A program made the translations under genes and the position numbers. The notes under the pieces were generated by a model. The model was not told where the DNA came from and searched no databases. It saw only the letters and a program-made list of their open reading frames with translations. From a virus, in the UHGV virus genome UHGV-2195224: 57,074 nt of DNA. One strand, given 5' to 3'. Below, one piece after another: positions 4,765 through 45,074 of this stretch (within the stretch, counting starts at the first letter, position 1; the number at the start of each line of letters is the position of its first letter).

Positions 4765-4821
4765 AAACTGCCGTTAAATTCAGTAAGAGAATTTCATCCG
4801 ATAAGTCAAGGCATGTAAAAC

Positions 4822-5865: not shown

Positions 5866-5870
5866 AAAGC

Positions 5871-5895
5871 AGCCCGCACTTATGCGGGCTAACCT
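5871..5895 (+). terminator. possible intrinsic terminator after the esterase gene
   Basis: hairpin agcccgcacttatgcgggct then weak T-tract. Confidence 0.35.
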
Positions 5896-7741: not shown

Positions 7742-7996
7742 GGTGACACCTGCTAAAGTATGCTTTTATAAACCTTAGTGGTGAGATATGATTTTTGTTT
7801 AATTTTTATTTAAAAAGACAATTAAGGTCACATTATCTTGAATATACAACAATAATCGTATTGCAATTTTCTTACACCATAATCTTGAAAGTTCAAAAGA
7901 ATGAATAAAAACTAAAGACATTAACAAAAAGCATAAAACGAGGCCCATACAAATATACGAACCTCCATATTTTAGTCGTTTAAAAATAAATTATTT

Positions 7997-8329
7997 TTAA
8001 TGTGGTGTGCTTCGTGACAATAAATTAATAACCAACACACCGGCACAAATCAACATCATGCCTATAATGGCTGGCAGGTCCAACCGTTGGCCGAAAAATC
8101 CCCATGATAGTATGCTAATCAGGACAATACCGACTCCTGACCAGATAGCATAAGCAATCCCTGTAGGTATATAAGCCAGCGTCTGAGCTAATAACCAGAA
8201 TGATGCACAATAACAAATAATTGTACCAACAGATGGCCATAACCGTGTAAAACCTTCTGAAAACTTCATTAAGGTTGTACCAATGACCTCTGCAAGTATT
8301 GCACCACCAAGATAAATATAAGGGTTCAT
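7997..8329 (-). CDS. emrE: SMR-family multidrug efflux transporter EmrE
   Basis: From internal ATG: MNPYIYLGGAILAEVIGTTLMKFSEGFTRLWPSVGTIICYCASFWLLAQTLAYIPTGIAYAIWSGVGIVLISILSWGFFGQRLDLPAIIGMMLICAGVLVINLLSRSTPH, 110 aa, four TM helices. Confidence 0.9.
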   Translation of the reverse strand: MNPYIYLGGAILAEVIGTTLMKFSEGFTRLWPSVGTIICYCASFWLLAQTLAYIPTGIAYAIWSGVGIVLISILSWGFFGQRLDLPAIIGMMLICAGVLVINLLSRSTPH

Positions 8330-8396
8330 AGCATATTCTTTCCTGTTCAAACTGGAGAGAATTGTACTACAGTTTGAACTCAACTCACCTGTTTCA

Positions 8397-8699
8397 TCAT
8401 TGTGTACCCATTGATGTTCTTTTATATACCCTCAATACCCGTTTCATCGCGGCACTCTGGCGACACTCCTTAAAAATCAAATTCGCGCTCACCTTTCCTT
8501 CCCGTTCTTCTCTGGTAGCGAACCGATAATACACCGTTCGCCAGACCTTACCATCAACGACCAGGATTCCTGCCCGCGCCATTTTAGCCGCAGCCTGATT
8601 TATGCTGGTTACGGTTGCGCCTGTTACCGCGGCAACGTCCTGCGCACAGAAGTTCTTATGAGTCCCCAGGTAATGAATAATTGCCTCTTTGCCCGTCAT
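8397..8699 (-). CDS. ren: Ren protein (lambda ren-like)
   Basis: ORF MTGKEAIIHYLGTHKNFCAQDVAAVTGATVTSINQAAAKMARAGILVVDGKVWRTVYYRFATREEREGK... Confidence 0.85.
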   Translation of the reverse strand: MTGKEAIIHYLGTHKNFCAQDVAAVTGATVTSINQAAAKMARAGILVVDGKVWRTVYYRFATREEREGKVSANLIFKECRQSAAMKRVLRVYKRTSMGTQ

Positions 8700-9397
8700 A
8701 CTCTTGCTCCTTTCAGCCCAAACTTAGCTTTGATTTCTGCGATCTTCGCCAGAGCCTGTGCACGATTTAGAGGTCTACCGCCCATGACAGGAATTTGTTT
8801 TACTGGTTCAGGTATAGCCTCACCACGGTTAATTCGCGCTGTCATACAGGTCAGTTCATCGGCAGCCTTGCGCCGTAATTCCGCGTCAGTCAGCGCATTG
8901 GCTCGCATGTTCTGATACAGGTTGGTAACCAACCAGTAATGCGCGTTTGATTTCCATGGATAAGACTCTGCATCCGGATAAAGGCCACGCTTCCGGCAAT
9001 ACTCGTAAACCATATCAACCAGCTCGCTGGCGTTTGGCAGCCCGGCGGTAACGGATGCTTCTTCCCGACACCAGGCAACAAACTGCCCGGGTGATGGCAG
9101 GAATGGTCGATTCTGCCGACGGGCTACGCGCATTCCTGCGTTAACCTGTTCCATTGTGGTGATCCCGTTTTCCCGGAAAGCCAGAACCCACTGGCGGCGG
9201 ATTTCGTTCAGTTCGTTCTGGTCCCGGTTAGCCAGACTCGCCGGGAAAGTTGCCAGTAACTGGCTGAACACACCGTTGATGATCTGCGCTACCTGCTGTA
9301 CCTGCGGCTTTTCGTCGTACTGTTCCGGCATGTTATTGGCGATCCGGCACATCTGCTCACGGTCAAAGTTAACCATCTGTGCGGCGATGTTTTTCAT
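8696..9397 (-). CDS. P: replication protein P (DnaB helicase loader, lambda P-like)
   Basis: 233-aa ORF MKNIAAQMVNFDREQMCRIANNMPEQYDEKPQVQQVAQIINGVFSQLLATFPASLANRDQNEL...; near-colinear with lambda P. Confidence 0.9.
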   Translation of the reverse strand: MKNIAAQMVNFDREQMCRIANNMPEQYDEKPQVQQVAQIINGVFSQLLATFPASLANRDQNELNEIRRQWVLAFRENGITTMEQVNAGMRVARRQNRPFLPSPGQFVAWCREEASVTAGLPNASELVDMVYEYCRKRGLYPDAESYPWKSNAHYWLVTNLYQNMRANALTDAELRRKAADELTCMTARINRGEAIPEPVKQIPVMGGRPLNRAQALAKIAEIKAKFGLKGARV

Positions 9398-10323
9398 AAA
9401 TCCACCCCATAAATCCAGTCAGTGTTTGTCAGGTCGAGTTTTGATTTTCCGGCTGTCACGCCAGCCTGTTGCTTGTTACGGTTGATTTCGAGTTGGGTCC
9501 ACTTGTCGCGGAGTTTGGCCGGACTTAGCACGTTACCGGACCAGAAGTTGTCCTGGCATGCCCAGCGGAACAGTACACACATGTCGCGGTGGTTACGTCC
9601 GTCACGTTCACGCATCAGGCGGATATCGTTAGCCCACCCTGCAAAATTCGGTTTTCTGGCTGATGGCGCGATGGTCTTCACCATGTCAAACATCCACTCT
9701 GCGGCGGTCAGGTCTTCTGCTGTCCCCCACTTGCTGCCGCTCTGAATTGCAGCATCCGGTTTCACCACAGGAAGATCGTTTTCTGGCTGGTCAGAGGATT
9801 CGCCAGAATTCTCGGACGAAAAAGGTTTTATATTGTCTTTTGTTAGTTTGTCTTTTGTGTTTACCTGATTCGGGTAAACGTCTTTACCTGATTTGGGTAA
9901 ACTTTTCTTACCTGATTCAGGTAAATTTACCTCTTTCAGGTAAACTTTATTTTTCTTACCTGATTCGGGTAATGTTGACCATTCACTGACCACATTATTA
10001 ATGCCGATATTCCGCCCGCTCTGAATAAAAATCCCACGCTTTATCAGAACACTTTTTGCAGCAGAACACTTGTGCGGCAATATCCCGGTCAACTCGGAAA
10101 GTTGCTCGTTGCTCACCCAATCCAGTTTTTTATTAAAGCCATATGTTTTGCGCATGACAGCCAGGAAGACCAGAAGCTGGTGCTGTGTTAATCCGGCCAG
10201 CATCACAGCTTCCAGCAACTCATTTGCAATGCGCGTATAACCATCATCGAGATCTGCCACGCGCGGCTCCTTTTGTGCCACATCCGGCACTGGAAAATTG
10301 AATATCTCAGCAGTGTTTGCCAT
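9394..10323 (-). CDS. O: replication initiator O (lambda O-like); start taken at MANTAEIFNF
   Basis: N-terminus aligns with lambda O (MTNTAKILNF...VADLDDGY...); contains the iteron array; stop overlaps P start; ORF track extends to 10413. Confidence 0.8.
   Translation of the reverse strand: MANTAEIFNFPVPDVAQKEPRVADLDDGYTRIANELLEAVMLAGLTQHQLLVFLAVMRKTYGFNKKLDWVSNEQLSELTGILPHKCSAAKSVLIKRGIFIQSGRNIGINNVVSEWSTLPESGKKNKVYLKEVNLPESGKKSLPKSGKDVYPNQVNTKDKLTKDNIKPFSSENSGESSDQPENDLPVVKPDAAIQSGSKWGTAEDLTAAEWMFDMVKTIAPSARKPNFAGWANDIRLMRERDGRNHRDMCVLFRWACQDNFWSGNVLSPAKLRDKWTQLEINRNKQQAGVTAGKSKLDLTNTDWIYGVDL
9860..9975. repeat. replication origin iterons (lambda ori-like) inside O
   Basis: Five tandem copies of an approximately 18-bp unit tacctgattcgggtaaa (variants ...tttgggtaaa, ...ttcaggtaaa, tacctctttcaggtaaa), each an internal inverted repeat. 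Confidence 0.7.
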
Positions 10324-10409
10324 AATTCCTCCCGCAATGAGTGTGTTACGATTTGCACCTGAAAGTCGGTTCTGTTCGCGCAGACCGGCTTTCGCCATTT
10401 CCGAACCTG

Positions 10410-10955
10410 TCATATTGCCCCCAGCATGGTGGTGACCATCGCCATCAGTGGACCAGCCAGATCCGGGTCCACACGAAACATCGACACAATGCCTTCACTC
10501 ATCTCCTTCAGTTTCTGGTGGCGTGGTGCGTTGAGAATGACAGCCTGTTTTGCCTCACTGAGTTCCTTTTCCATTTCAGCCAGCCGAGCCATGAAGCTAT
10601 CCTGCTCAACCAGGTGGCCGCGATATTCCAGCGGTAGTACCGCCAGAATTGCCGGGGTCAGTTCACGCACGTTATTTCGGTATTTTTCAGAATCGAATTT
10701 GTTATCGAGGAAGCGGAACAGCTTCTGGCGTGCACGGCTGACATCATCAGGGAAATCGATGGTGCCGCCGCCCTGCTCCCGATACTCATTCACAATGAGT
10801 GCGGCAACAACATCCTGATTATCTGCAGCCGACCAGGCGCGAACGGCATCACGGATTTTTTCGTGGCCTGGCGCCTGTTTTGTTTGAGAACGATTTATCA
10901 CCGCAGTCGGGCTAAATCCGCTAGTCTGTTGGTATGTAAGTGGTTGCATAGTCAT
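10410..10955 (-). CDS. phage regulatory protein in the cII position (CP76/CII-like family?), 181 aa
   Basis: ORF MTMQPLTYQQTSGFSPTAVINRSQTKQAPGHEKIRDAVRAW...; sits between cro and O on the early-right operon; family assignment from memory. Confidence 0.45.
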   Translation of the reverse strand: MTMQPLTYQQTSGFSPTAVINRSQTKQAPGHEKIRDAVRAWSAADNQDVVAALIVNEYREQGGGTIDFPDDVSRARQKLFRFLDNKFDSEKYRNNVRELTPAILAVLPLEYRGHLVEQDSFMARLAEMEKELSEAKQAVILNAPRHQKLKEMSEGIVSMFRVDPDLAGPLMAMVTTMLGAI

Positions 10956-10979
10956 TGCCTTATCAGTTAACGCCGCAGA

Positions 10980-11207
10980 TTAGGCGGCAGAATTACTCGC
11001 GTTAAACAATGGTGCGAGGTCGGGACGAATATCTGCTGGTTTAATCTTTCCACCAGTGGCTGAGACAATTTTCATTACATAGCGGGCATCAATTCCGCCA
11101 CCGTGTAGCCAACGCCAAACAGTGGGCTGGGCTACACCGCATAGATCTGCCAGTCGTTTTTGACTACCTGTAATACTGATTGCGAGTTGAATGGTTTGAT
11201 TTGTCAT
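10980..11207 (-). CDS. cro: Cro-like HTH repressor
   Basis: 75-aa ORF with HTH ...GSQKRLADLCGVAQPTVWRWLHGG...; divergent from cI across an operator-bearing gap. Confidence 0.7.
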   Translation of the reverse strand: MTNQTIQLAISITGSQKRLADLCGVAQPTVWRWLHGGGIDARYVMKIVSATGGKIKPADIRPDLAPLFNASNSAA

Positions 11208-11317
11208 TATTAATTCCTATTGGTATTACAATGAATAAATAATAGCAATGCGTATTAATCACAGCAATAGCAAAACGTGTTTTGACCATCAATACGCAAG
11301 CGTATAAATTAAAACTT
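11208..11317. promoter_or_regulatory. immunity switch region (OR operators, pR/pRM) between cro and cI
   Basis: 110-bp AT-rich divergent gap with repeated motifs taatagcaatgcgtatta / cagcaatagcaa / atcaatacgcaagcgtat; same CAATAGCAAT family recurs at 13055-13150. Confidence 0.5.
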
Positions 11318-12010
11318 ATGAAAAAAGAAACTCTTGCTGATCGCTTAAACCTAGCGATGGAACAATCTGGAATGTCTCAAGGCGCTCTTGCAAAGGCGTC
11401 TGGCGTAGCTCAACCCACAATCTGGAGACTGACAAGCGGCAACGCGCGCGGCTCAACAAAAATTGTTGAAATAGCTAATGCATTGGGTGTTCGAACAGAG
11501 TGGCTCTCATCAGGCATAGGCCCGATGAGAAATGACGGTCAACAATTAGGGAAGCCTACTGCCAACCATCCCAAATACTTCAAGATTGACGTTCTTGATA
11601 TAGAAGTGAGTGCCGGGCCGGGAGTCATCAACCGTGAGTTTGTAGAAGTTCTACGCTCGGTTGAGTACTCGTTTGACGATGCTCGTCACATGTTCGATGG
11701 TAGGAAGGCAGAAAATATCCGCATCATTAACGTACGCGGTGACAGCATGTCAGGAACGATTGAACCTGGTGATCTTCTGTTCGTTGATATCACGGTTAAA
11801 TCTTTCGACGGTGATGGCATCTATGCGTTTCTGTACGACGACACCGCCCATGTAAAGCGCCTGCAAATGATGAAGGATAAGCTGCTGGTTATCTCTGATA
11901 ACAAGAGCTACTCACCGTGGGACCCGATCGAGAAAGACGAGATGAACCGGGTGTTCATCTTCGGTAAGGTTATTGGGAGCATGCCCCAGACGTACAGGAA
12001 ACATGGATAA
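11318..12010 (+). CDS. cI: CI repressor (HTH plus LexA/S24-like autocleavage domain)
   Basis: From internal ATG: MKKETLADRLNLAMEQSGMSQGALAKASGVAQPTIWRL...; C-terminal S24 peptidase domain with GDSM serine motif; no SD before ATG, consistent with leaderless pRM mRNA. Confidence 0.85.
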   Translation: MKKETLADRLNLAMEQSGMSQGALAKASGVAQPTIWRLTSGNARGSTKIVEIANALGVRTEWLSSGIGPMRNDGQQLGKPTANHPKYFKIDVLDIEVSAGPGVINREFVEVLRSVEYSFDDARHMFDGRKAENIRIINVRGDSMSGTIEPGDLLFVDITVKSFDGDGIYAFLYDDTAHVKRLQMMKDKLLVISDNKSYSPWDPIEKDEMNRVFIFGKVIGSMPQTYRKHG

Positions 12011-12076
12011 TCAGTACTGTGCTGATGAGTCGTTTAGGGGATAGTAAATTTAATTAGAATTAGACGAGAGCGATTT

Positions 12077-12940
12077 ATGGATTGTGACGCTTTACAGGAT
12101 ATAAAAATCTCTCTTAGGTATGACGGAAAAGATGCTTTAAATCATGAAATAGATTTGAACTGCCTAGGAGAATCCCTAAAGGGTTTTTCTAAAGTTCTCT
12201 CAACAGCAGCTTCTTTCTCTGTTACACAAAAATATAGTAAATACATTAATTATCAGGAAGTTAAGGTTTACGCACGCGAAGCAAAAGCTAACTGCTTTAC
12301 TCTTGAAGCAGTTCTTAACTTCGCCACTCAGAACCAGTTGTTCTCGGGGATCGCCGCAACTATACTTGGCGCAATACTACAATATATTTTTGCGAGAAAT
12401 TCTAACAAGAAAGATGAAATGAAAGCTTTGCAGCAGTCACTTGAAAAGGCCATAGAGGCACTAGGAAACAAGGATGCTGGAACCATTGATAAGTTGATCT
12501 CTTTGATTGACCGAATGGCTGTAGAGCTTCGCCCCTCTGTAAGGCAGGCAGTATCACCTATTGGTAATACTTGCGATCAGATAAGTGTTGCAACAAATGT
12601 TGACGGCTGCCTTCTAAAAGTTAACGAGAGAGATAAAGCTGAAATTGATAGGCTTGATGATGATGAAGTTCTCGGTCTTCGTGAGTATCGTGCTTTTCTT
12701 ACAGAATTTGATGCACAAAATATGACAGCTAAAATAATTTTAGATGGTGATGACTCAAAAAAGAGAATCACTGCTGAAATTAGCGATCCAGCTGCAGGAA
12801 AGAAGAATAACCCGTATATTAGAGCTCTTAGTGCATATATATCAACCAAAGGTGATCCATCTGCAGTATTCACTATAACCGCAAAGGCTACTGTTAAAAA
12901 AGGCCAGATAAACAGGTTATTTATTGTAGATGCGAAATGA
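12077..12940 (+). CDS. uncharacterized 287-aa protein in the rexAB/sieB slot downstream of cI
   Basis: [39 protein letters not shown]...; one hydrophobic segment [19 protein letters not shown]; AT-rich; co-directional with cI and followed by a terminator. Confidence 0.6.
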
Positions 12941-12944
12941 TTTC

Positions 12945-12971
12945 CCCGGCCGTCGTGCCGGGTTTTCTTTT
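12945..12971 (+). terminator. intrinsic terminator ending the cI-cargo transcript
   Basis: stem cccggc/gccggg with 6-nt loop followed by TTTTCTTTT. Confidence 0.6.
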
Positions 12972-13054
12972 GCCTCCCCTCATCACATAAACCGTTCAAA
13001 AAACCACCACGACCTCGCTTCAGTTATCGCTATGCGATGCAAGTCACAAAATTA

Positions 13055-13150
13055 ATTCTTTTTGCTATCAAACAGTTAATATCAAAACACATCAATCAAT
13101 AGCAATAAGTATTGATATAGTCAATAGCAATAGCTATTATCACCATGTCG
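13055..13150. promoter_or_regulatory. putative OL/pL operator-promoter region
   Basis: palindromic motifs atcaatagcaataagtattgat and aatagctatt sharing the CAATAGCAAT core with the cro-cI gap. Confidence 0.4.
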
Positions 13151-13417
13151 CAACAACACAACGATACGGCAATCACCTGATTCACCGTTGCGATGACCGC
13201 TTAGATCCGCAGCTTGAATTTCAGCAGGCTCCGGGGAGTGCGAGGGGTGAAGCGGACGCGTGAACGTCGGTGTGACCAGCTGAAATCAACTCAACACCTC
13301 ATACCTCAGTCGCTTCAACGAGGCGGCTTAGTTATGACAACCGGCGGCCATCCACCGCCTGAATACGCGCAGAAGTCTCTATATGTTCAGCAGCCCAGCT
13401 TACGGGCAGGAGTTTTT

Positions 13418-13624
13418 ATGGTTCATCAACATTACGGAACGCAGACCGTTAATCGAGGTGCGGTCATGCCAGGAATGCTGGTCAAACACAAAGATGGTAC
13501 CTGGACTGCATCAGCTAATTTACGCGGACGGCTTTATCTGCATCGCGGCATCGAGCGCACTTATACCCGTGATTTGCTCGTGGAAGTTTTTCTCGACGGA
13601 CGCGGTAACGGCCTCAATCACTAA
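13418..13624 (+). CDS. small early-left-operon protein (68 aa), function unknown (Kil/cIII position)
   Basis: ATG at 13418 preceded by strong SD caggag; [44 protein letters not shown]...; the longer track ORF from 13214 begins at TTG. Confidence 0.35.
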
Positions 13625-13699
13625 TCCCCTTTCCTGTTTTCCTAATCAGCCGGGCATTTCGCGGGCGATATTTTCACAGCCATTTTCAGGAGTTCAGCC

Positions 13700-13996
13700 A
13701 TGAACGCTTATTACATTCAGGATCGTCTTGAGGCTCAGAGCTGGGCACGTCACTACCAGCAGATCGCCCGTGAAGAGAAAGAGGCAGAACTGGCAGACGA
13801 CATGGAAAAGGGTCTGTCCCAGCACCTGTTTGAATCACTCTGCATCGATCATTTGCAACGCCACGGGGCCAGCAAAAAAGCCATTACCCGTGCGTTTGAT
13901 GACGATGTTGAGTTTCAGGAGCGCATGGCAGAACACATCCGGTACATGGTTGAAACCATTGCTCACCATCAGGTTGATATTGATTCAGAGGTATAA
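13700..13996 (+). CDS. gam: Gam (RecBCD inhibitor), short GamS form
   Basis: 98-aa [63 protein letters not shown]...; in-frame stop upstream excludes the long form. Confidence 0.9.
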
Positions 13997-14001
13997 AACG
14001 G

Positions 14002-14787
14002 ATGAGTACAGCACTCGCAACGCTGGCAGGGAAGCTGGCTGAACGTGTCGGCATGGATTCTGTCGACCCACAGGAACTGATCACCACTCTTCGCCAGACA
14101 GCATTTAAAGGCGATGCCAGCGATGCGCAGTTCATCGCATTGTTGATCGTCGCCAACCAGTACGGCCTTAATCCGTGGACGAAAGAAATTTACGCCTTCC
14201 CTGATAAGCAGAACGGCATCGTTCCGGTGGTGGGCGTTGATGGCTGGTCCCGCATCATCAATGAAAACCAGCAGTTTGATGGCATGGACTTTGAGCAGGA
14301 CAATGAATCCTGTACATGCCGGATTTACCGCAAGGACCGTAATCATCCGATCTGCGTTACCGAGTGGATGGATGAATGCCGCCGCGAACCATTCAAAACC
14401 CGCGAAGGCAGAGAAATCACCGGCCCGTGGCAGTCGCATCCCAAACGGATGTTACGGCATAAAGCCATGATTCAGTGTGCCCGTCTCGCCTTCGGATTTG
14501 CTGGTATCTATGACAAGGATGAAGCCGAGCGCATTGTCGAAAATACTGCATACACTGCAGAACGTCAGCCAGAACGCGACATCACTCCGGTTAACGATGA
14601 AACCATGCAGGAGATTAACACTCTGCTGATCGCCCTGGATAAAACATGGGATGACGACTTATTGCCGCTCTGTTCCCAGATATTTCGCCGCGACATTCGC
14701 GCATCGTCAGAACTGACACAGGCCGAAGCAGTGAAAGCTCTTGGATTCCTGAAACAGAAAGCCACTGAGCAGAAGGCGGCAGCATGA
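14002..14787 (+). CDS. bet: Bet / Red-beta single-strand annealing recombinase
   Basis: 261-aa [69 protein letters not shown]... Confidence 0.9.
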
Positions 14788-15464
14788 TACCGGACATTAT
14801 CCTGCAGCGTACCGGGATCGACGTGAGAGCTGTCGAACAGGGGGATGATGCATGGCACAAATTACGGCTCGGCGTCATCACCGCTTCAGAAGTTCACAAC
14901 GTGATAGCAAAGCCCCGCTCAGGAAAGAAGTGGCCTGACATGAAAATGTCCTACTTCCACACCCTGCTGGCTGAGGTTTGCACCGGTGTGGCTCCGGAAG
15001 TTAATGCTAAGGCGCTGGCCTGGGGAAAACAGTACGAGAACGACGCCAGAACCCTGTTTGAATTCACTTCCGGCGTGAATGTTACTGAATCCCCGATCAT
15101 CTATCGCGACGAAAGTATGCGCACCGCCTGCTCTCCCGATGGTTTATGCAGTGACGGCAATGGCCTTGAGCTGAAATGCCCGTTTACCTCCCGGGATTTC
15201 ATGAAGTTCCGGCTCGGTGGTTTCGAGGCCATAAAGTCGGCTTACATGGCCCAGGTGCAGTACAGCATGTGGGTGACGCGAAAAGATGCCTGGTACTTTG
15301 CCAACTATGACCCGCGTATGAAGCGTGAAGGACTGCATTATGTCGTGGTTGAGCGGGATGAAAAGTACATGGCGAGTTTTGACGAGATGGTGCCGGAGTT
15401 CATCGAAAAAATGGACGAGGCACTGGCTGAAATTGGTTTTGTATTTGGGGAGCAATGGCGATGA
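14784..15464 (+). CDS. exo: lambda exonuclease (Exo / Red-alpha)
   Basis: 226-aa [68 protein letters not shown]...; overlaps bet stop. Confidence 0.9.
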
Positions 15465-15643
15465 CGCATCCTCACGATAATATCCGGGTAGGCGCGATCA
15501 CTTTCGTCTACTCCGTTACAAAGCGAGGCTGGGTATTTCCCGGCCTTTCTGTTATCCAAAATCCACTGAAAGCCCAGCGGCTGGCTGAGGAGATAAATAA
15601 TAAACGAGGGGCTGTATGCACAAAGCATCTCCCGTTGAGTTAA
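15455..15643 (+). CDS. small lambdoid early protein (lambda orf61-like)
   Basis: 62-aa [34 protein letters not shown]...; immediately after exo. Confidence 0.45.
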
Positions 15644-15807
15644 GAACGAGTATCGAGATGGCACATAGCCTCGCTCAAATTGGAGTCAGGTTTGTGCCAA
15701 TACCAGTAGAAACAGACGAAGAATTTCATACGTTAGCCACATCCCTTTCACAAAAGCTGGAAATGATGGTGGCGAAAGCAGAAGCAGATGAGAGAGACCA
15801 GGTATGA
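15616..15807 (+). CDS. small lambdoid early protein (lambda orf63-like)
   Basis: 63-aa [40 protein letters not shown]... Confidence 0.45.
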   Translation: MHKASPVELRTSIEMAHSLAQIGVRFVPIPVETDEEFHTLATSLSQKLEMMVAKAEADERDQV

Positions 15808-15883
15808 CAACCACTGAATGCATTTTTCTGGCAGCGGGCTTCATATTCTGTGTGCTTATGCTTGCCGACATGGGACTTGTTCA

Positions 15884-16099
15884 ATGACACCTCAGCAAGA
15901 AAACGCCCTTCGCAGTATTGCCCGTCAGGCTAATTATGAAATCAAAAAAGCCAGACAGCAGTTTCCGGATAAAAACGTCGATGACATTTGCCGTAGCGTA
16001 CTGAAGAAGCACCGCGAAACGGTAACGCTGATGGGATTCACACCGACTCATTTAAGCCTGGCGATCGGCATGTTAAACGGCGTCTTTAAGGAACGGTGA
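15884..16099 (+). CDS. small hypothetical early protein
   Basis: internal ATG MTPQQENALRSIARQANYEIKKARQQFPDKNVDDICRSVLKKHRETV... Confidence 0.4.
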   Translation: MTPQQENALRSIARQANYEIKKARQQFPDKNVDDICRSVLKKHRETVTLMGFTPTHLSLAIGMLNGVFKER

Positions 16100-16121
16100 A
16101 CATGAAAAACAAAATCATCAT

Positions 16122-16148
16122 GGAGCTACAGGCTCCTTTTTTATTATT
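16122..16148 (+). terminator. possible intrinsic terminator
   Basis: hairpin ggagctacaggctcc followed by TTTTTTATTATT. Confidence 0.45.
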
Positions 16149-16197
16149 CGCATTCACCCTCAAGCGTATTAACCAACAATTCAGGGATTAATGAAAG

Positions 16198-16416
16198 ATG
16201 GCAGACATCATTGATTCAGCATCAGAAATTGAAGAATTACAGCGCAACACAGCAATAAAAATGCGCCGCCTGAACCACCAGGCTATATCTGCCACTCATT
16301 GTTGTGAGTGTGGCGATCCGATAGATGAACGAAGACGCCTGGCCGTTCAGGGTTGTCGGACTTGTGCAAGTTGCCAGGAGGAGATCGAACTTAAGAACAA
16401 ACAATGGGGACTGTGA
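16198..16416 (+). CDS. TraR/DksA-family C4 zinc-finger protein
   Basis: 72-aa ORF with CCECGDPIDERRRLAVQGCRTCASC (two CxxC pairs). Confidence 0.7.
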   Translation: MADIIDSASEIEELQRNTAIKMRRLNHQAISATHCCECGDPIDERRRLAVQGCRTCASCQEEIELKNKQWGL

Positions 16417-16463
16417 TGGCCTCAAAGCAGCAAATTTCAACATCGTCCAACTGAGGTGTAAAA

Positions 16464-16703
16464 ATGTTCAGAATCATTTTTCCTAACACCTGGTACGTCG
16501 ACCACCACGGCACTCCCTGCAAAATCCTGCGTTCTACCCACAACAAAGTTCACTACATCCGAAAAGGCAGAACATGTATCGCCAGCATGTTCCGCTTTAA
16601 TCATGACTTTGAACCTGTGAATAAAGCTGATGCAGATCGGATAGCAGAAGAGATCGAAACGGCAGAACACATTAAGAAGTTACGTGCCATACGCAGGAAA
16701 TAG
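16464..16703 (+). CDS. hypothetical small protein
   Basis: 79-aa ORF with SD gaggtg; MFRIIFPNTWYVDHHGTPCKILRSTHNKVHYIRKG... Confidence 0.4.
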   Translation: MFRIIFPNTWYVDHHGTPCKILRSTHNKVHYIRKGRTCIASMFRFNHDFEPVNKADADRIAEEIETAEHIKKLRAIRRK

Positions 16704-16842
16704 AAAAATTGATAAATTCAATACTGCATTTCTCAGCATTAAATTTATCTCTATGACCAGTCAAGAGATGTACCTGCCATGAGCTTAATATCATGTCAGA
16801 TATATCGGTCACAAACTCCCTCAGCAGCTAAGAGGAGGACAA

Positions 16843-17079
16843 ATGTCTCGACTAATCACTTTACAGGACTGGGCTAAAGAAGAATTTGGGGACTTAGCAC
16901 CAAGTGAGCGAGTTCTGAAAAAATACGCGCAAGGGAAAATGATGGCCCCACCCGCTATAAAAGTTGGTCGCTACTGGATGATTGACCGAAATTCCCGTTT
17001 TGTAGGAACGCTTGCAGAACCGCAACTCCCAATAAACGCAAACCCAAAACTCCAACGGATAATCGCTGATGGCTGCTAG
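16843..17079 (+). CDS. xis: excisionase-like protein
   Basis: 78-aa ORF with strong SD aggagg, directly upstream of and overlapping int; homologous to 55721-55966. Confidence 0.6.
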   Translation: MSRLITLQDWAKEEFGDLAPSERVLKKYAQGKMMAPPAIKVGRYWMIDRNSRFVGTLAEPQLPINANPKLQRIIADGC

Positions 17080-18211
17080 ACCCCGATCTCACAAAATCTC
17101 TATACCCAATTTATATTGCAAATTAGATAAGCGAACCGGAAAGGTATATTGGCAATACAAACATCCACTATCCGGTCGTTTTCATAGCTTAGGAACTGAT
17201 GAGAATGAAGCAAAACAAGTTGCTACTGAAGCAAATATCATTATTGCTGAACAACGTACCCGACAAATATTAAGCGTCAATGAGCGTCTGGAAAGAATGA
17301 AAGGCAGGCGCTCAGACATTACGGTGACAGAATGGCTTGATAAATATATTTCTATCCAGGAGGACAGGCTGCAACATAATGAACTAAGACCCAACTCCTA
17401 TCGGCAAAAAGGCAAACCCATTCGTCTTTTCCGTGAGCATTGTGGAATGCAACACCTCAAGGATATTACCGCACTTGATATTGCCGAAATAATTGATGCT
17501 GTAAAGGCTGAAGGTCATAACAGGATGGCGCAAGTCGTGAGAATGGTGTTAATCGACGTCTTCAAAGAAGCACAACACGCAGGACATGTTCCGCCAGGAT
17601 TTAACCCAGCGCAGGCAACAAAACAACCGCGAAATCGAGTAAACCGCCAAAGATTATCACTGCCCGAATGGCAGGCAATATTTGACAGCGTAAGCAGACG
17701 GCAGCCCTATTTAAAATGTGGGATGCTACTTGCTCTTGTCACTGGACAACGTTTAGGCGATATCTGCAATTTGAAATTCTCTGATATCTGGGACGACATG
17801 TTGCACATTACTCAGGAAAAAACCGGTTCAAAACTTGCTATTCCGCTTAACCTGAAATGCGATGCTCTGAATATTACCCTTCGTGAAGTTATATCTCAGT
17901 GCAGGGATGCTGTTGTTAGTAAATATCTGGTCCATTACCGTCACACAACCTCTCAAGCAAACAGAGGAGACCAGGTTTCTGCGAATACTCTGACAACGGC
18001 TTTTAAAAAGGCCAGGGAAAAATGTGGCATAAAATGGGAGCAAGGAACTGCGCCCACATTTCATGAGCAGCGATCTCTGTCAGAACGGTTATATCGGGAA
18101 CAGGGTCTGGATACGCAAAAGTTGTTAGGCCATAAATCCAGAAAAATGACCGACCGATACAATGATGATCGTGGTAAAGACTGGATTATCGTAGATATCA
18201 AAACAGCATAG
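17069..18211 (+). CDS. int: tyrosine integrase (lambda Int family), icd-targeting type
   Basis: 380-aa ORF; catalytic-domain motifs ...LVTGQRLGDI..., ...HEQRSL..., ...LLGHKSRKMTDRY...; adjacent to the icd-derived att core; paralogous to 55947-57074. Confidence 0.9.
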   Translation: MAARPRSHKISIPNLYCKLDKRTGKVYWQYKHPLSGRFHSLGTDENEAKQVATEANIIIAEQRTRQILSVNERLERMKGRRSDITVTEWLDKYISIQEDRLQHNELRPNSYRQKGKPIRLFREHCGMQHLKDITALDIAEIIDAVKAEGHNRMAQVVRMVLIDVFKEAQHAGHVPPGFNPAQATKQPRNRVNRQRLSLPEWQAIFDSVSRRQPYLKCGMLLALVTGQRLGDICNLKFSDIWDDMLHITQEKTGSKLAIPLNLKCDALNITLREVISQCRDAVVSKYLVHYRHTTSQANRGDQVSANTLTTAFKKAREKCGIKWEQGTAPTFHEQRSLSERLYREQGLDTQKLLGHKSRKMTDRYNDDRGKDWIIVDIKTA

Positions 18212-18220
18212 AAAATAGCC

Positions 18221-18258
18221 AGTTTTGGGGAAGGGTTTTGGGGAAAGTTTTGGGGAAG
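18221..18258. repeat. three tandem direct repeats (a/g)gttttggggaa(g/a), candidate Int arm-type sites
   Basis: agttttggggaag / ggttttggggaaa / gttttggggaag directly after the int stop. Confidence 0.4.
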
Positions 18259-18279
18259 ATTTTACATCATCATAAAACA

Positions 18280-18305
18280 ACGGGCGTGTTATACGCCCGT
18301 TTCAA
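18280..18305. terminator. bidirectional hairpin between int and the icd fragment
   Basis: stem acgggcgt/acgcccgt with gttat loop, flanked by AT-rich tracts. Confidence 0.45.
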
Positions 18306-18324
18306 TATTTAACACATGTAGAGA

Positions 18325-18489
18325 TTACATGTTCTTGATGATCGCGTCACCAAACTCTGAACATTTCAGCAGTTTAGCGCCTTCCATCAGACGTTCGAAG
18401 TCATAGGTTACGGTCTTCGCGTTGATTGCGCCTTCCATACCTTTAACAATCAGGTCTGCGGCTTCAGTCCAGCCCATATGGCGCAGCAG
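18325..18489 (-). pseudogene. icd: isocitrate dehydrogenase (icd) 3-prime-terminal fragment = prophage att core
   Basis: Minus-strand translation [54 protein letters not shown] then stop; an in-frame TAA sits immediately upstream so it is not fused to an icd body. Confidence 0.8.
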
Positions 18490-18933
18490 TAGTTAGATGG
18501 TTCATATACAACCGCATGATAAATAAAAATAATCCTATAATTTTATTGTAAATCAACTGGCTTTTATCTTTCCCCTAACCTATTGATTATCAATGTATGT
18601 TTTTTGGTTTTGATAACCGTTTTAGAGGGCAAAAACAAGTGCCTGTACCTATCAGCCCCTTCACGGCAAAGGGATTTTAAATCATGCGTGTTTTCACAAA
18701 CTATCAATGGCTTAACTAAATTTTTCGCCAATAACGTACGCTGTGAGTGAGAGGTGGATATGAAGTTACACACTCCCGGAAAATAAAGAATTGAGCGTTA
18801 TCTCATGCTATTAATGAAAAGTGTTTGCTTAATAGATTACATATAACTATGATTCAAGCCCAATTAAAGTCGTGTGTCTTTGGCTTAAATTGGCAAACAA
18901 ACAATCAAGTCAAGAATATAAAGGAACTATTCA

Positions 18934-19902
18934 ATGAATAAGAATTATAAAACGTTTAAACTTGAACTATGGGAGAAGTTTAAGCATCAATGTGCTTACT
19001 GTGGCACTAAACTTTATGAACCATTGATGGCGGATGTTGATCGTTTTTTCCCAAAATCAAAGTATACTGACTTCCAAGATGCTACAGACAACCTGCTCAT
19101 CGCTTGTAAGGCATGTAGCATGATTAAAAAAGATCAGTTTCCTCTCGATGAAAATGGCAAACCATTACTTCTAAATCCTTTAAATGAAAGTTTTTCAGAA
19201 CATATAAAACAAAATAAAAATGGATATTTAGAAGGTTTAACTGAGCGAGGACATGCGACTATAGATATATTACAGTTGAATAGACCTTCATTAATTGAAC
19301 AGCGCATTCTAGATGTTATTGATATGCAGTACTCTGATGATCGAACGCTATCTGAACGAGATGTCTATATGACATTCCAAAATAGTATGCAGAACGCCAT
19401 AAAACTAAATGATGCTCAGTTAAAAATTGATAGCACTTTACAAATACAAATGTCGTATATGCTATATGCCAATACAATAACTTCCTTGGAAACATATTTA
19501 TGTGACAGATTTATTTCCCTAATTCATGGTAGCCAAACTAATTTGAGAAATTTTGTTGAAACCTTCAAAGATTACAATACAGAAAAATTCTTACTTTCTG
19601 AATTATTTATAAGGCATGAACAAATAGAGTCTCAAGCGATAGAGTCTATGAAGAGTGTTCTTTATCATAATCTGCCAAAAGTAAGTGGCATGTATCGAGA
19701 TACCTTTGGTATTAAATTCCCTGTTTTCACAGAAGTTTATAAAAGCGTGTTAATTAGGCATGACTTAGTTCATCGAGCAGGTAAAACAAAAAATGGTAAT
19801 TTTCATAAGTTAGATTCAGAGTCAGTTAAAGATGTTATCAAAAAATGCTGTGACTTGGTTGAACAACTAGAAAAAGAGCTTAAAGATTGTGCATCATTCT
19901 AG
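18934..19902 (+). CDS. uncharacterized protein: N-terminal HNH-like Cys4 zinc-finger domain plus C-terminal helical domain with R-x4-H (HEPN-like) motif
   Basis: 322-aa AT-rich ORF; CAYCG...DVDRFFPKSKY...DNLLIACKACSMIKKD (Arg where the catalytic His is expected); C-terminal ...SVLIRHDLVHRAGK...; SD aagga. Confidence 0.55.
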   Translation: MNKNYKTFKLELWEKFKHQCAYCGTKLYEPLMADVDRFFPKSKYTDFQDATDNLLIACKACSMIKKDQFPLDENGKPLLLNPLNESFSEHIKQNKNGYLEGLTERGHATIDILQLNRPSLIEQRILDVIDMQYSDDRTLSERDVYMTFQNSMQNAIKLNDAQLKIDSTLQIQMSYMLYANTITSLETYLCDRFISLIHGSQTNLRNFVETFKDYNTEKFLLSELFIRHEQIESQAIESMKSVLYHNLPKVSGMYRDTFGIKFPVFTEVYKSVLIRHDLVHRAGKTKNGNFHKLDSESVKDVIKKCCDLVEQLEKELKDCASF

Positions 19903-20095
19903 GTAATTGCCACCAAATCGAAGGTGATCGCGCTTGCGGTCACCAAAAGTAATAAACTATTCATTCCCATTCGATCATCTGAACCAACACAATTTTATTT
20001 AATAAAGTTGACCTACTTCATTATTTGATACCCATCCAATGTGCGCAAGGGCTGCTTCTGGCACATGGTTACCCTTGATGAGAAGGTAGATCACC

Positions 20096-20219
20096 GCTAT
20101 GGGGTGTCGGGGGCGGAGGTTCAAATCCTCTCGTGCTGACCAAAAATCCTCGAAGAACCAGCCTGTTACGGCTGGTTTTTTTTGCCTGTTTTCTGAACGG
20201 GGAAGCAATGGGGAAATTA
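20096..20219 (+). repeat. direct repeat copy 1: 3-prime 45 nt of a tRNA-Pro gene (to ACCA at about 20142) plus its terminator and flank
   Basis: ctatggggtgtcgggggcggaGGTTCAAATCCtctcgtgctgACCA then aaccagcctgttacggctggttttttt; no 5-prime tRNA half upstream. Confidence 0.7.
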
Positions 20220-20405
20220 GCTTACGATTGACCCCACTGCGAAAAGCGCAGATTTTTATCAATGGACGTACATAGGGTAGATAAGGCACAATACTGCTTC
20301 AATGTCGTCTGATGGTATTGTAATACTAATTACATCAGATGATTTAACTAGATTAGTTCTTTATAGAAATCATTCTTGAATATTAATTGGCTGACTGAGG
20401 TTTTT

Positions 20406-21191
20406 ATGGATGAAAAATACAGAAGATTTGTTGATGAGGTTGACTTTTCAAGACAATTATTAGGCATAGGGCTCACTTCCCTAAGGAAAGCAAATTTTGC
20501 AAGTAGAGGATTGTATTTTCAAGCATTATCCGGCATCAGTTTAGGATTAGAAAGGCTTATGAAACTTTGCCTTATGCTTGATGATTATAATAAAAATGGA
20601 AAATATACATCACGCAAAAAATTAAGAGATTACGGTCATAACTTAAGCAAGTTATTCAACCTAGTCATTGAGAGAGTTGATTCTCCCTCTGGCTTAAATG
20701 AAATTCACTACAGAGTGATGGAGTTGTTAACTAATTTTGCAAATTCATCAAGATATAGTAATATTGATTTCATTACTAATGACAACGACAATGATCCCAT
20801 GAAGCAATGGTATAATGAAATCGATAAGAGCATTTACGATAAAATATTAACAAAAAGACAAAAAAATATAATTGATAAAAAATGCGAGCAATACCGAAGC
20901 TATGGTGAAACACTGCCATGCTATGTGCTTGGATATTATGATGAAGACAGAAACCATATAAACTCTGCAGGGGATTTAAATTATTTACTTAAAAGAAGTG
21001 AAATGCTTGCTGGTTATCGCACTTTATTAGTTATTCATATCATAGAATGCATCTATAACATATTAGACTCAATGACAGTTCAAGCAAAAGATAATCACTT
21101 CCACCATCTTGAATTAGGTCGTTTTTTTGCAACCATCATTTATGGCTCTGATAGAGACAAAATCAATAGAAAAAATTTTATCCGTATGTGA
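20406..21191 (+). CDS. uncharacterized AT-rich protein (about 261 aa from ATG at 20406) bracketed by tRNA-Pro-fragment repeats
   Basis: SD gagg 6 nt upstream; MDEKYRRFVDEVDFSRQLLGIGLTSLRKANFASRGLYFQALSGISLGLERLMKL...; no recognised catalytic motif. Confidence 0.55.
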   Translation: MDEKYRRFVDEVDFSRQLLGIGLTSLRKANFASRGLYFQALSGISLGLERLMKLCLMLDDYNKNGKYTSRKKLRDYGHNLSKLFNLVIERVDSPSGLNEIHYRVMELLTNFANSSRYSNIDFITNDNDNDPMKQWYNEIDKSIYDKILTKRQKNIIDKKCEQYRSYGETLPCYVLGYYDEDRNHINSAGDLNYLLKRSEMLAGYRTLLVIHIIECIYNILDSMTVQAKDNHFHHLELGRFFATIIYGSDRDKINRKNFIRM

Positions 21192-21267
21192 GACTACGAA
21201 GCGACCGACGAATGATGCTATCAACTTACTGTAGACGCATATAGGCCATCAGAATATTAGCACGACA

Positions 21268-21389
21268 CTATGGGGTGTCGGGGGGCGGAGGTTCAAATCC
21301 TCTCGTGCCGACCAAAAATCCTCGAAGAACCAGCCTGTTACGGCTGGTTTTTTTGCCTGTTTTCTGAACGGGGAAGCAATGGGGAATTA
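21268..21389 (+). repeat. direct repeat copy 2: tRNA-Pro 3-prime fragment (to ACCA at about 21314) plus terminator and flank
   Basis: Near-identical to 20096-20219 with a few substitutions/indels (e.g. ctgacca vs ccgacca). Confidence 0.7.
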
Positions 21390-21588
21390 CAGGGGAAAAA
21401 CCCCGTCAAATGTTGCCCCCGTATCGCTAGCACACAATGATTAAGTATCTTTTTCACTTTCGGAATTCATCAATTCACAAAACCATCATTCCGATTTACC
21501 TTACATGCTCCTTTTAAATCTTTAACGGTGTGCACCACTTTTTCTAACTGCCCTATACTTTCAGTCTGACATACGGCTGGAGGTTTCT

Positions 21589-22257
21589 ATGTGTGGACGC
21601 TTTTCACAGTCAATGACCCGTGAAGATTATCTTGCCCTTCTCGCTGATGAATCAGAACGCGATATTCCATACGATCCAGAACCCATCGGAAGATTCAACG
21701 TAGCGCCAGGAACAAAAGTTCTGCTTCTGAGCGAACGTGATGAGCAGTTGCATCTTGATCCAGTTATCTGGGGATACGCCCCCGGTTGGTGGGATAAACC
21801 GCCGCTCATTAATGCACGGTCTGAAACTGCTGCCACCAGCAGAATGTTTAAACCACTCTGGCAGCATGGCCGCGCAATTTGCTTTGCTGATGGATGGTAT
21901 GAGTGGAAAAAGGAAGGCGACCAAAAACAACCCTACTTTATTCACCGGGCAGACGGTCAGCCGATTTTTATGGCGGCGATCGGCAGCACACCATTCGAAC
22001 GTGGAGATGAAGCAGAAGGTTTCCTGATAGTTACAGCTGCAGCTGACAAAGGACTGGTTGATATTCACGACAGACGACCACTGGTACTGCTACCGGAAGC
22101 CGCGCGTGAATGGATGAGGCAGGATGTTGGAGGGAAAGAAGCAGCGGAAATTGCAGCCGACGGTGTTGTACCGGCTGATAAATTTATATGGCACGCCGTA
22201 ACGCGTGCCGTCGGGAATGTGAAAAATCAGGGCGCCGAACTAATAACGCCAATATGA
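21589..22257 (+). CDS. SOS-response-associated peptidase (SRAP / YedK-like abasic-site processing protein)
   Basis: 222-aa ORF starting MCGRFSQS (catalytic Cys2) with SD ggagg; occupies the slot where a Pin/Gin invertase gene would be expected. Confidence 0.7.
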   Translation: MCGRFSQSMTREDYLALLADESERDIPYDPEPIGRFNVAPGTKVLLLSERDEQLHLDPVIWGYAPGWWDKPPLINARSETAATSRMFKPLWQHGRAICFADGWYEWKKEGDQKQPYFIHRADGQPIFMAAIGSTPFERGDEAEGFLIVTAAADKGLVDIHDRRPLVLLPEAAREWMRQDVGGKEAAEIAADGVVPADKFIWHAVTRAVGNVKNQGAELITPI

Positions 22258-22451: not shown

Positions 22452-22934
22452 TTGCACATATCAGCAGTGAGCCATCGCAGTTTGGGAGAAGGTGCTCCAG
22501 CTATTGGCGTTCCGTTCTTCTGGGCGTCCGCTGCAATGCCAAATACTGTAATCGACAGCTGGTCCAGTATGGTGTTTTTGAAGTTCAACGGGGCGAAATT
22601 TTCTGCCACTGATTACCCTGTGCTGGCGAAAGTGTTTCCGGCGTTGGCATTACCTGACGCACGCGGTGATTTCATTCGTGTCTGGGATGACGGGCGAGGT
22701 GCAGATGGTGGTCGCGAATTATTAAGCTGGCAGGCAGCTACAAACTTTTCTCAGTTTGCCGGGAATATAGGCGAAGGTGCGGGACACGCAATTAACTTTC
22801 ATGATGGCATCGCCGGAAATCAGCCAGGATTTTCACGATTTAATTTCACCAGTAACTCTGTGGGTGATGGTGTGAATTTTGTTGCTGTCAGACCGCGAAA
22901 TATTGCATTTAACTTTCTGGTGAGGGCTAAATAA
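22452..22934 (+). CDS. tail-fibre alternative C-terminal segment (silent inverted cassette)
   Basis: ...GEGAPAIGVPFFWASAAMPNTVIDSWSSMVFLKFNGAKFSATDYPVLAKVFPALALPDARGDFIRVWDDGRG...; begins at the inverted-repeat crossover half-site, no constant N-terminal part. Confidence 0.7.
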   Translation: MHISAVSHRSLGEGAPAIGVPFFWASAAMPNTVIDSWSSMVFLKFNGAKFSATDYPVLAKVFPALALPDARGDFIRVWDDGRGADGGRELLSWQAATNFSQFAGNIGEGAGHAINFHDGIAGNQPGFSRFNFTSNSVGDGVNFVAVRPRNIAFNFLVRAK

Positions 22935-23527
22935 TGAAACCTGTTTTTGATGAAAATGGGCTGGCTACAGTGCCGGGCGATATGCGTTGTTTTTATTATG
23001 ATGCTGAAACATCTGAGTATACGGGCTGGTCTGATGAATATATTAATACTGGCGTAAGTATGCCCGCCTGTTCAACTGGTATTGACCCGGGCGAAAACAT
23101 TCTGGGAAGAGTGACGGTATTTACAGGTAAGGGATGGAGCCATGAGGAAGACCATCGCAATGAGACTGTTTACTCAATCGAAAATGGTGCAGCTGTTACA
23201 GTGGATTATATCGGTGCCATCAAAGACGGTTATGTCACGCTTTCACCGTTAACGCCATACGATAAATGGGATGGTGAGAAATGGGTGACAGACACTGAGG
23301 CACAACACAGTGCCGCAGTAGACGCGGCAGAAGCACAGCGCCAGTCACTGATTGATGCAGCAATGGCTTCCATTAGTCTGATTCAGCTGAAATTACAGGC
23401 CGGACGGAAACTGACTCAGGCAGAAACAACCCGACTTAACGCCGTGCTGGATTACATTGACGCGGTGACGGCAACAGATACCAGCACCGCGCCGGATGTC
23501 ATCTGGCCTGAACTGCCGGAGGCGTAG
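22934..23527 (+). CDS. tail fibre assembly protein (Tfa; partner of the silent fibre cassette)
   Basis: 197-aa ORF MKPVFDENGLATVPGDMRCFYYDAETSEYTGWSDEYINTG... Confidence 0.8.
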   Translation: MKPVFDENGLATVPGDMRCFYYDAETSEYTGWSDEYINTGVSMPACSTGIDPGENILGRVTVFTGKGWSHEEDHRNETVYSIENGAAVTVDYIGAIKDGYVTLSPLTPYDKWDGEKWVTDTEAQHSAAVDAAEAQRQSLIDAAMASISLIQLKLQAGRKLTQAETTRLNAVLDYIDAVTATDTSTAPDVIWPELPEA

Positions 23528-23927
23528 GCCATTCAATATCGGGTGCTGTTGACGTATCAACACGCATCAGCAGCACACGGTATTTCTTCCATTGGGTGAG
23601 AGTTGTAGCTTCTTCATCAGTTGCGATATCAGCATCAACAGCATCCTGACGCCAGGATATTTCACTGTCAGCCTTTTCCCGTAATTGGGATTTTTTAACT
23701 TCAGCAATAGCTATTAATTCCTTTTTGGTCGGCTGAGGAATATCTATCAGTGCTGGTTTTCCATTCAGTGTTCCAATCTGTTTTCCTGGTGGAATATCCA
23801 TAAATAACTTTTTATGTTCTTCCTCACTGACTATTACACCATCATCAGGCCACAGACCTGATGCCTCAAATTTTTCTTTCTCCGATATGGGGAAAAAGCC
23901 ATTTGCTTTAGCGCTCCATACGTACAT
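23499..23927 (-). CDS. tail fibre assembly protein (Tfa; partner of the expressed fibre)
   Basis: 142-aa ORF MYVWSAKANGFFPISEKEKFEASGLWPDDGVIVSEEEHKKLF...; C-termini of the two convergent Tfa genes share ...RVDTSTAPDIEWP... Confidence 0.8.
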   Translation of the reverse strand: MYVWSAKANGFFPISEKEKFEASGLWPDDGVIVSEEEHKKLFMDIPPGKQIGTLNGKPALIDIPQPTKKELIAIAEVKKSQLREKADSEISWRQDAVDADIATDEEATTLTQWKKYRVLLMRVDTSTAPDIEWPTPPAVQAR

Positions 23928-23928
23928 A

Positions 23929-24513
23929 TCAATACCCCACCGCTATAATGTCCACATTAAATCCCCCGGGACCTGCCTGCCAGATGCTGGCCCCTGTTAA
24001 TGATTTTGTTTGATGAACAACCGCCACATTTGCTGGTGATTGTGTTTCAGTTGTTACAGTACCGATATCATTCCAGTTAATTGAGATGGAATAGTTCGTT
24101 GTTGTAAACGACCGGGGGAAAGTTATATGTCTTACATTAGTGCCAATAGGAAATCCAAGATAAACACGCTGAATTATCATTCCTCCAGGTAACATAACCC
24201 AGTTAGCACCTTCTCCCAAACCAAGGTTTTCGAGAGCCGTTTTCACCGTGCCATCCGATTTGATATCGCCAAACGGATTCTTGCGGCTTAACAGCAGCGC
24301 ACGAAGCGCTGTAAGCAGCTGGTCATGCCGCCCCTTCTCCAGGCTGGCACCGGATGCCTCCACAACACTGCAAAGTTCCTCCTGCAACATGTCAAAGTAG
24401 TCATCATCCAGATCGGTGGCAGGTGTGCCGGTCTGGGGGTTACCACGGGTAAAACCGTTCTTACCCGCGCCGAACTTATCCTTCTGCGCGGTTTTCGTGT
24501 CTATACGATGCAT
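23929..24513 (-). CDS. tail fibre protein (Mu S / e14 StfP-like), expressed orientation
   Basis: 194-aa [50 protein letters not shown]...; contains the 26-bp crossover site at the constant/variable junction. Confidence 0.8.
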
Positions 24514-45067: not shown

Positions 45068-45074
45068 GGCTAAT

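Follow-up and report, generated by a model that had tools for sequence, protein, structure and literature searches.

The window analysed here, the whole 57,074-bp stretch of the virus genome UHGV-2195224, carries two prophages on either side of a short 3' fragment of icd, the isocitrate dehydrogenase gene, which reads on the minus strand (Table 1). Prophage 1, cut by the window start, is present with lysis genes, a gene for an OmpC-like porin, Q, rusA, replication genes, a repressor gene, bet/exo, xis and int, and its part in the window showed 98% identity to the annotated 21-type lambdoid prophage of strain 82.0311. In prophage 2, the open reading frames comprise contractile tail, head, lysis, Q, replication, repressor, xis and int genes, with 94-98% identity in long blocks to the annotated full-length, contractile-tailed e14-like prophage of the same strain. 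Both elements are co-oriented, as int1/xis1 and int2/xis2 are all found on the plus strand.

The assignment of prophage 1 to the 21 type was based on the identity of its Xis to that of phage 21 and on the comparison of its Int with those of free phages; Int1 shared 99.7% sequence identity with the Int of 4A7, ev207, Perceval and others. Pfam analysis of Int1 returned the N-terminal arm-binding domain (PF09003, E = 1e-28) and PF00589 (E = 9e-24). Alignment of the two int/xis pairs gave 60% identity for Int and 36% for Xis. An earlier reading made from the letters of the window (the sequence-only reading) had claimed that a second homologous int ends at 57074 and that cargo and tail genes of prophage 2 follow on the other side of the icd fragment, and both claims held, with int2 stopping exactly at the last base of the window.

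Table 1 Features of the window around the icd fragment and at the ends of the two prophages.
Feature	Position	Strand	Basis or details
Prophage 1, right-hand (early) part, lambdoid, phage-21 type	1-18271		Cut by window start; ORF lists, Pfam on identical contigs
xis1, excisionase	16843-17079	+	Exact 78-aa sequence equals UniRef VXIS_BPP21; Pfam Exc
int1, tyrosine integrase, phage-21 type	17069-18211	+	Pfam Arm-DNA-bind_1 and Phage_integrase
21-type P' arm, three tandem 13-bp arm-type repeats	18221-18263	+	TRF; TTTTGGGGAA cores at 18223, 18236 and 18248
icd replacement cassette, 217 bp	18272-18488	-	Half-match breakpoints; multiple alignment of attB, attP, attL, attR and junctions
icd intrinsic terminator hairpin	18279-18301	-	9 pairs and T tail; within cassette; conserved in empty attB
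icd 3' fragment, 54 codons and stop	18325-18489	-	Translation, Pfam, comparison with Icd C-termini; no icd body attached
Putative strand-exchange (core) region	18479-18489		Cassette 5' edge; SNP patterns and K-12 e14 excision data
e14-type P arm, right end of prophage 2	18489-18933		Arm-type site TTTTGATAA at 18608-18616
Prophage 2, e14-type element, ~38.6 kb in window	18489-57074		Continues ~3.8 kb past window
Prophage 2 right-end cargo	18934-22257	+	HNH protein 18934-19902; 271-aa ORF 20376-21191; SRAP peptidase 21589-22257 (Pfam SRAP)
xis2, XisE-type excisionase	55721-55966	+	94% identity to K-12 XisE; Pfam Exc
int2, IntE-type integrase	55947-57074	+	95% identity to K-12 IntE; Pfam Arm-DNA-bind_1 and Phage_integrase

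Cargo and gene disruptions in the two prophages

The cargo of prophage 1 (1170-2312, 4822-5865, 6215-7741 and 12077-12940) includes the OmpC-like porin gene, located between Q and the lysis genes, and genes for a secreted alpha/beta hydrolase, for a 508-aa product aligning with a ybcK-annotated gene (recombinase family protein) of the 98%-identical relative, and for a DUF7946/DUF7947 protein adjoining the repressor. A close relative of prophage 1 in Z0117EC0036 harbours an 11-kb element inside its major capsid gene (L007, 17400-28363), which has its own integrase, primase and capsid genes with a TIR-domain gene alongside. Such a helper-embedded satellite arrangement has been described (PMC10111431).

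At the right end of prophage 2, the 322-aa HNH protein occupies the place of mcrA in K-12 e14, without an adjoining ATPase partner. PADLOC matched it to PtuB (Septu nuclease) profiles with E = 1e-23 and to a type IV methyl-directed restriction profile, and Pfam gave no match. Its identification as an mcrA homologue was rejected, since tblastn found no match despite the PtuB-like and type IV hits. The K-12 e14 cargo mcrA, pinE and lit, which is typical of such elements and does not define them, was not found in prophage 2: tblastn returned no match for PinE and, for McrA, only a weak one to an HNH gene beside the terminase genes. Cargo varies among e14-like elements, and the element of AH01 carries the same right-end cargo genes as prophage 2.

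The 271-aa ORF of this cargo, for which neither Pfam nor PADLOC gave a hit, is bracketed by two 119-bp direct repeats of 99-100% identity (20097-20215 and 21268-21386). Each repeat consists of a tRNA-like 3' end (T arm, acceptor and CCA) followed by a strong terminator hairpin, and the first extends upstream into a weak tRNA match of 18.9 bits, which is below threshold and is not called by ARAGORN. The repeats look like attachment scars left by a small island that was inserted into a degenerate phage tRNA gene.

Several further features of prophage 2 were recorded. Its major capsid gene is split into two frames at 36347-36362 by a 1-nt deletion relative to 82.0311 (CCGAAAGGG to CCGAAGGG), and the split may reflect either a defective prophage or a sequencing error. 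The tail-fibre segment at 22480-24229 is inverted relative to AH01, and about 1.5 kb of the AH01 sequence, comprising the remainder of an S24 peptidase pseudogene together with dinI and the pin invertase gene, is absent here; the tail-fibre switch appears to be frozen. With its frameshifted capsid gene and lost pin, prophage 2 may be able to excise and not to form particles. Two plus-strand genes between Q and the holin gene (44039-45650) matched PDC-M53A (E = 2e-31) and PDC-M53B (E = 2e-54) in PADLOC and form a candidate defence pair. The gene for the 323-aa replication protein contains six tandem 15-bp repeats of CAGATTTTGACGGGT (50259-50352), which are probably iterons of the origin like those in lambda O.

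The icd fragment and its flanks in related genomes

Translation of the minus strand of 18325-18540 gave the C-terminus of E. coli Icd followed by a stop codon, and Pfam Iso_dh matched the fragment at profile positions 301-348 of 348 (E = 4e-6), in agreement with the claim that the last 54 codons of isocitrate dehydrogenase are encoded here. Compared with the Icd C-termini of the empty site and of lysogens, the sole difference is the first codon, M to L. Between 18272 and 18488 the DNA agrees at every base with the 3' end of icd in other E. coli and the sequence downstream of it (100% identity), and judged by this identity a chance resemblance is excluded. The homology stops after 18488, where the window has CAG and the host CAT (Met). 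An in-frame TAA (18493-18495) is found upstream, two codons from the edge of the homology and one codon from 18489; because of this stop, the buried fragment would not be translated as a fusion. The sequence-only reading was thus right that a stop keeps the fragment from being fused to an icd body and nearly exact in placing it immediately upstream, and the distance of 110 bp that it gave between int1 and the fragment was measured as 113 bp, from the int1 end to the fragment's stop codon.

The fragment lies within a 217-bp cassette made up of the last 165 bp of icd and 53 bp downstream, the icd terminator included. This cassette occurs only once in the window and is the sole sequence common to the flanks of both prophages and the host site. 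The residues encoded by all compared copies of the cassette in this lineage are those of native Icd. The scans for tRNA genes and Rfam families gave no match in the whole window, so the attachment site is not based on an RNA gene.

We searched 5,426 complete E. coli genomes (RefSeq) by megablast with the segment 17000-20000, and no genome among them spans all of it. The left half (17000-18488) matched, at 99.8-99.9% identity, an int adjoining intact icd in genomes such as Z0117EC0036 and NC101, and over all single lysogens compared the identity was 99.8-100%. The match at the int-icd junction in the NC101 genome records was 99.8%, and the NC-SV prophage of NC101 sits in the phage 21 site within icd (PMC12803456). 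The right half (18272-20000) matched the end of an e14-like element, which in AH01 shows the order HNH gene, icd fragment and host iraM. The two half-matches overlap in exactly 18272-18488, the 217 bp of the cassette. An identical int1 sits 113 bp from intact icd in single lysogens (L020 and Z0117EC0036), and in the free phage 4A7 the cassette is flanked by int and sitA.

Exact look-up of Int2 gave seven places, standing for 23 contigs read, and intact icd was found downstream on the minus strand in all seven. The order after int2 was the same in 7/7 places: a 165-aa ORF, a 279-aa HNH protein gene, a 510-aa ATPase gene, icd, rluE, nudJ, mnmA, hflD, purB and phoP. Two of the contigs, L011 and L014, match the final 10 kb of the window at 99.99% identity, and the distance from the int2 stop to the stop codon of icd is 3,845 bp in L011. 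Host icd had been expected just beyond 57074 on the minus strand; the intact gene and its strand agree with this expectation, including in the two 99.99% identical contigs, but it lies ~3.85 kb beyond, after the three cargo genes. The flanks in these contigs thus gave neither an icd located elsewhere nor another attachment site for prophage 2, as all seven Int2 places lead to intact icd and the arm repeats are of the e14 type.

The stretch between int2 and icd in L011 (11334-14489) contains, besides the 165-aa ORF, a Septu-like pair, in which PADLOC identified the ATPase as PtuA/PDC-M01A and the HNH protein as PDC-M01B. In other e14-like elements the same slot holds lit/ymfD/ymfE (K-12) or a DUF2357 gene and a large ORF (82.0311).

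Int1, likewise looked up by exact sequence, occurs in three contexts. These are the window-type junction, examined in L019 and L021 (7 further similar places), int1 next to intact icd, examined in L020 (8 further), and int1 followed by an icd fragment and a gtr-carrying element (L018). Over 13,143 bp spanning the junction, L019 matches the window at 100% identity, and the same junction is present in the metagenome contig L021 at 99.98% identity. Since L019 and L014 come from the same draft assembly (GCA_916179605.1), one sister assembly shows both the junction and the int2-to-icd end. For the outer attachment sites beyond the window, the near-identical draft contigs point to the structure of attL and an analogous genome to that of attR.

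That genome is strain 82.0311, which contains the whole tandem array on one chromosome, with three icd copies. Its order is icd, two cargo genes, intE/xisE, a 40-kb e14-like prophage and an mcrA remnant, then an icd fragment, a 21-type int/xis pair and a 46-kb lambdoid prophage with sitABCD; at the outer attR, sitA is followed by a second icd fragment and ymgL. A hybrid-junction query, constructed so that 80% coverage is reached by hybrid junctions only, detected the window-type junction in 6 of the 5,426 complete E. coli genomes. Empty icd sites were counted with a synthetic query in at least 3,027 genomes, at least 56% of the complete E. coli genomes, which is a lower bound because only one version of the downstream flank was represented in the query. 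Tandem arrays at icd are uncommon but recurrent.

A hybrid attachment site between the prophages

TRF detected an array of period 13 with 3.4 copies just after int1. The motif TTTTGGGGAA occurs three times in the whole window, always in this P' arm, and 0/100 shuffles reached three. On the other side of the cassette, the e14-type P arm was 99.7% identical to the element end of AH01 that adjoins an icd fragment and iraM. For attachment sites whose type was known, the positions of the arm motifs were expressed relative to the fixed anchor CATATGGCG. In the attP of free phage 4A7, and likewise in attL and attR of Z0117EC0036, TTTTGGGGAA lies at -251/-238/-226 in the P' arm and at +134 in the P arm; in attL and attR of K-12 e14, these positions are taken by TTTTGATAA, at -251/-238/-227 and +134. 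AH01 and 82.0311 also have TTTTGATAA at +134, and the attL of the sister contigs has TTTTGATAA at -251/-238/-227, as in K-12 attL. The window junction shows TTTTGGGGAA at -251/-238/-226 and TTTTGATAA at +134. The presence of the 21-type motif on one side and the e14-type motif on the other, at unchanged offsets, marks the junction as a hybrid attachment site which, by its motifs, is composed of e14-type P arm, core, cassette and 21-type P' arm. Each element contributes one arm, prophage 2 the P arm and prophage 1 the P' arm, and the core between them is shared.

The 21-type copy of the P-arm site at +134 was seen in the Z0117EC0036 attR and the 4A7 attP, and the P arm belonging to prophage 1 lies outside the window. 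Looser motif matching for a second P-arm site gave weak, unconserved candidates only. From the outermost P' repeat to the P site, the junction spans ~395 bp, which fits the minimal attP of phage 21, reportedly 366-418 bp and reaching to the outermost dodecamers.

The arm motifs, the int/xis modules, the half-matches and the sister contigs all agree with the claim that two icd-targeting prophages stand in tandem with the fragment as their attachment junction. We give a probability of about 90% to the reading in which the fragment forms the att junction inside a tandem prophage pair, both members of which were inserted at the 3' end of host icd.

The pair could also have been joined by RecA-dependent homologous recombination between the 217-bp cassettes instead of by an integrase, in which case the elements might no longer be separable. 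Three direct repeats of 217 bp with 97-100% identity are adequate substrates, and an exchange that left no mosaic would give a product of the same appearance. We nevertheless consider this origin unlikely, because the junction cassette contains no mosaic and shows 100% identity to its counterpart in the attL of single lysogens with the same int1, because both arms and both int/xis pairs are intact, and because the architecture recurs with different partners, including the gtr-carrying phage.

The owner of the buried cassette was addressed by aligning 18 cassette copies of known context. The AH01 attR copy equals an empty attB copy throughout its 217 bp, down to two variants located 2-4 bp from the 5' edge. 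At 7/7 variable positions, the junction copy of 82.0311 agrees with the attP copy of free phage 4A7, and the outer attR copy of 82.0311 does not. These variant patterns indicate that the cassette stays with the P' arm and that exchange takes place at its extreme 5' edge. In K-12 populations that had lost e14, icd changes were reported at 1196220, 1196232, 1196245 and 1196247 (PMC13626634). These four are exactly the attL-specific variants of our cassette alignment, and the first of them is located 11 bp into the 165-bp repeat.

Since the cassette moves together with the P' arm, 18272-18488 would be the 21-type phage's own copy, whichever phage came first, and the fragment is most likely the replacement icd end of prophage 1 itself, to judge from these alignments. 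The fragment might instead be the displaced original host icd end, like icdC of K-12, left by one insertion. No difference separates the window cassette from the host-type copies that Z0117EC0036 and 82.0311 have at their outer attR, and the junction cassette in this lineage is also identical to the common host-type icd end, so the SNPs of the window alone do not discriminate and cannot show phage origin. A crossover within ~11 bp of the 5' edge (PMC13626634), which makes the copy on the 21-type P' arm that of the 21-type phage, and the agreement of the 82.0311 junction cassette with 4A7 attP at all variable positions, with a differing outer attR copy, speak against a displaced host end, and we regard it as quite improbable. 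We had also considered deriving the insertion order from the cassette SNPs; this was dropped, as with a crossover at the 5' edge either order yields the same junction copy.

An assembly artefact, in which separate prophages were collapsed through the repeated icd end, is very improbable: 217-bp repeats can mislead short-read assemblers and draft assemblies do break inside these prophages, but the same junction was present in L019 (100%) and the metagenome contig L021 (99.98%), and six complete genomes have analogous junctions.

For the tandem pair of integrated prophages, the predicted order along icd, which is the minus strand of the window, would begin with the icd body, the core, and the icd-end cassette and P' arm of prophage 2. 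The prophage 2 cargo, int2, xis2, the remainder of this e14-type element, its P arm and a core would come next, then the 217-bp cassette, the 21-type P' arm, int1, xis1 and prophage 1, and at the end the P arm of prophage 1, a core, the original host icd end and host genes. On the P' side of the crossover, each phage has a copy of its own of the final 165 bp of icd with the terminator, and insertion at the 5' edge of this replacement copy therefore rebuilds a full icd and displaces the resident copy. The buried copy would currently be unused, because the copy of prophage 2 is fused to icd.

In the lambda Int paradigm, arm-type sites are recognized through the N-terminal domain of the integrase. 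By analogy, each integrase would read only its own arm motif via its N-terminal arm-binding domain. If so, the junction would serve as attR of prophage 2 and attL of prophage 1, and each prophage could excise without the other. Loss of prophage 2 would join the buried cassette to icd, and loss of prophage 1 would leave an e14-type attR.

Relation to known icd-site elements and implications

The icd site is a known attachment site of phage 21 and e14 (PMC12803456; also the K-12 annotation), and the arrangement in the window is a natural instance of the phage 21/e14 situation described decades ago and is already known in this sense. In K-12, e14 is arranged as icd / intE-xisE ... mcrA / icdC. 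Prophage 2 resembles it in the close identity of Int2 and Xis2 to IntE and XisE (Table 1), in the P-arm site TTTTGATAA, found at the same offset as at the mcrA-icdC junction, in the same 165-bp icd repeat, and in the cargo carried between int and icd in its relatives. However, e14 is a 15-kb remnant, whereas prophage 2 is full-length, measures ~42 kb and includes genes for a head, a contractile tail and lysis; it has an unrelated HNH protein in place of mcrA, its pin is deleted, and its right end adjoins another prophage rather than host iraM.

The left-hand element shares its module with phage 21 and relatives such as NC-SV and the Bievrevirus phages, 4A7 among them. Xis1 is the Xis of phage 21, Int1 is nearly identical to free-phage Int, and the P' repeats and cassette match a free-phage attP. 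In the window, by contrast, an e14-type P arm adjoins this P' arm and cassette, in place of the icd body found there in attL or the phage's own P arm found there in attP.

Tandem lysogens of 21 and e14 have reportedly been made in the laboratory, and each element is said to excise itself far better than its neighbour. As in those lysogens, two lambdoid elements with related but distinct Int/Xis stand side by side in the same attB; unlike them, the window represents a natural isolate with a full-length e14-type partner, known from sequence. The comparison with lambda Int/Xis extends to the arm-binding and catalytic domains of both integrases, the three P' repeats, the P-arm site and the position of xis upstream of int. 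The difference lies in the target, which at icd is inside a protein-coding gene, so a 217-bp gene-end replacement is carried, and in the arm motifs.

The two integrase families have identical att geometry (-251/-238/-226, +134) and differ only in the arm "code", TTTTGGGGAA or TTTTGATAA. Conceivably, this orthogonality has evolved so that several prophages can be stably stacked at icd and do not excise one another. The buried cassettes would in that case be spare gene ends, switching the icd 3' allele as prophages are gained and lost; we think this quite improbable. A stronger form of the same idea is that the hybrid junction could permit regulated co-excision or hybrid phages.

Beyond correct annotation, the significance of the arrangement is small. 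The window should be annotated as two separate prophages rather than as a single element of 90 kb, and the icd "pseudogene" that separates them represents an att junction and not a product of gene decay. Tandem islands at one att site are routinely split by island-mapping studies, for example the PICI tandems at the fis site (PMC10111431). Comparison of the arm sites allows the ends of icd-site elements to be assigned to the 21 or e14 type from sequence, and would also be usable for splitting tandem arrays. The icd site is a busy insertion hotspot with defence and virulence cargo.
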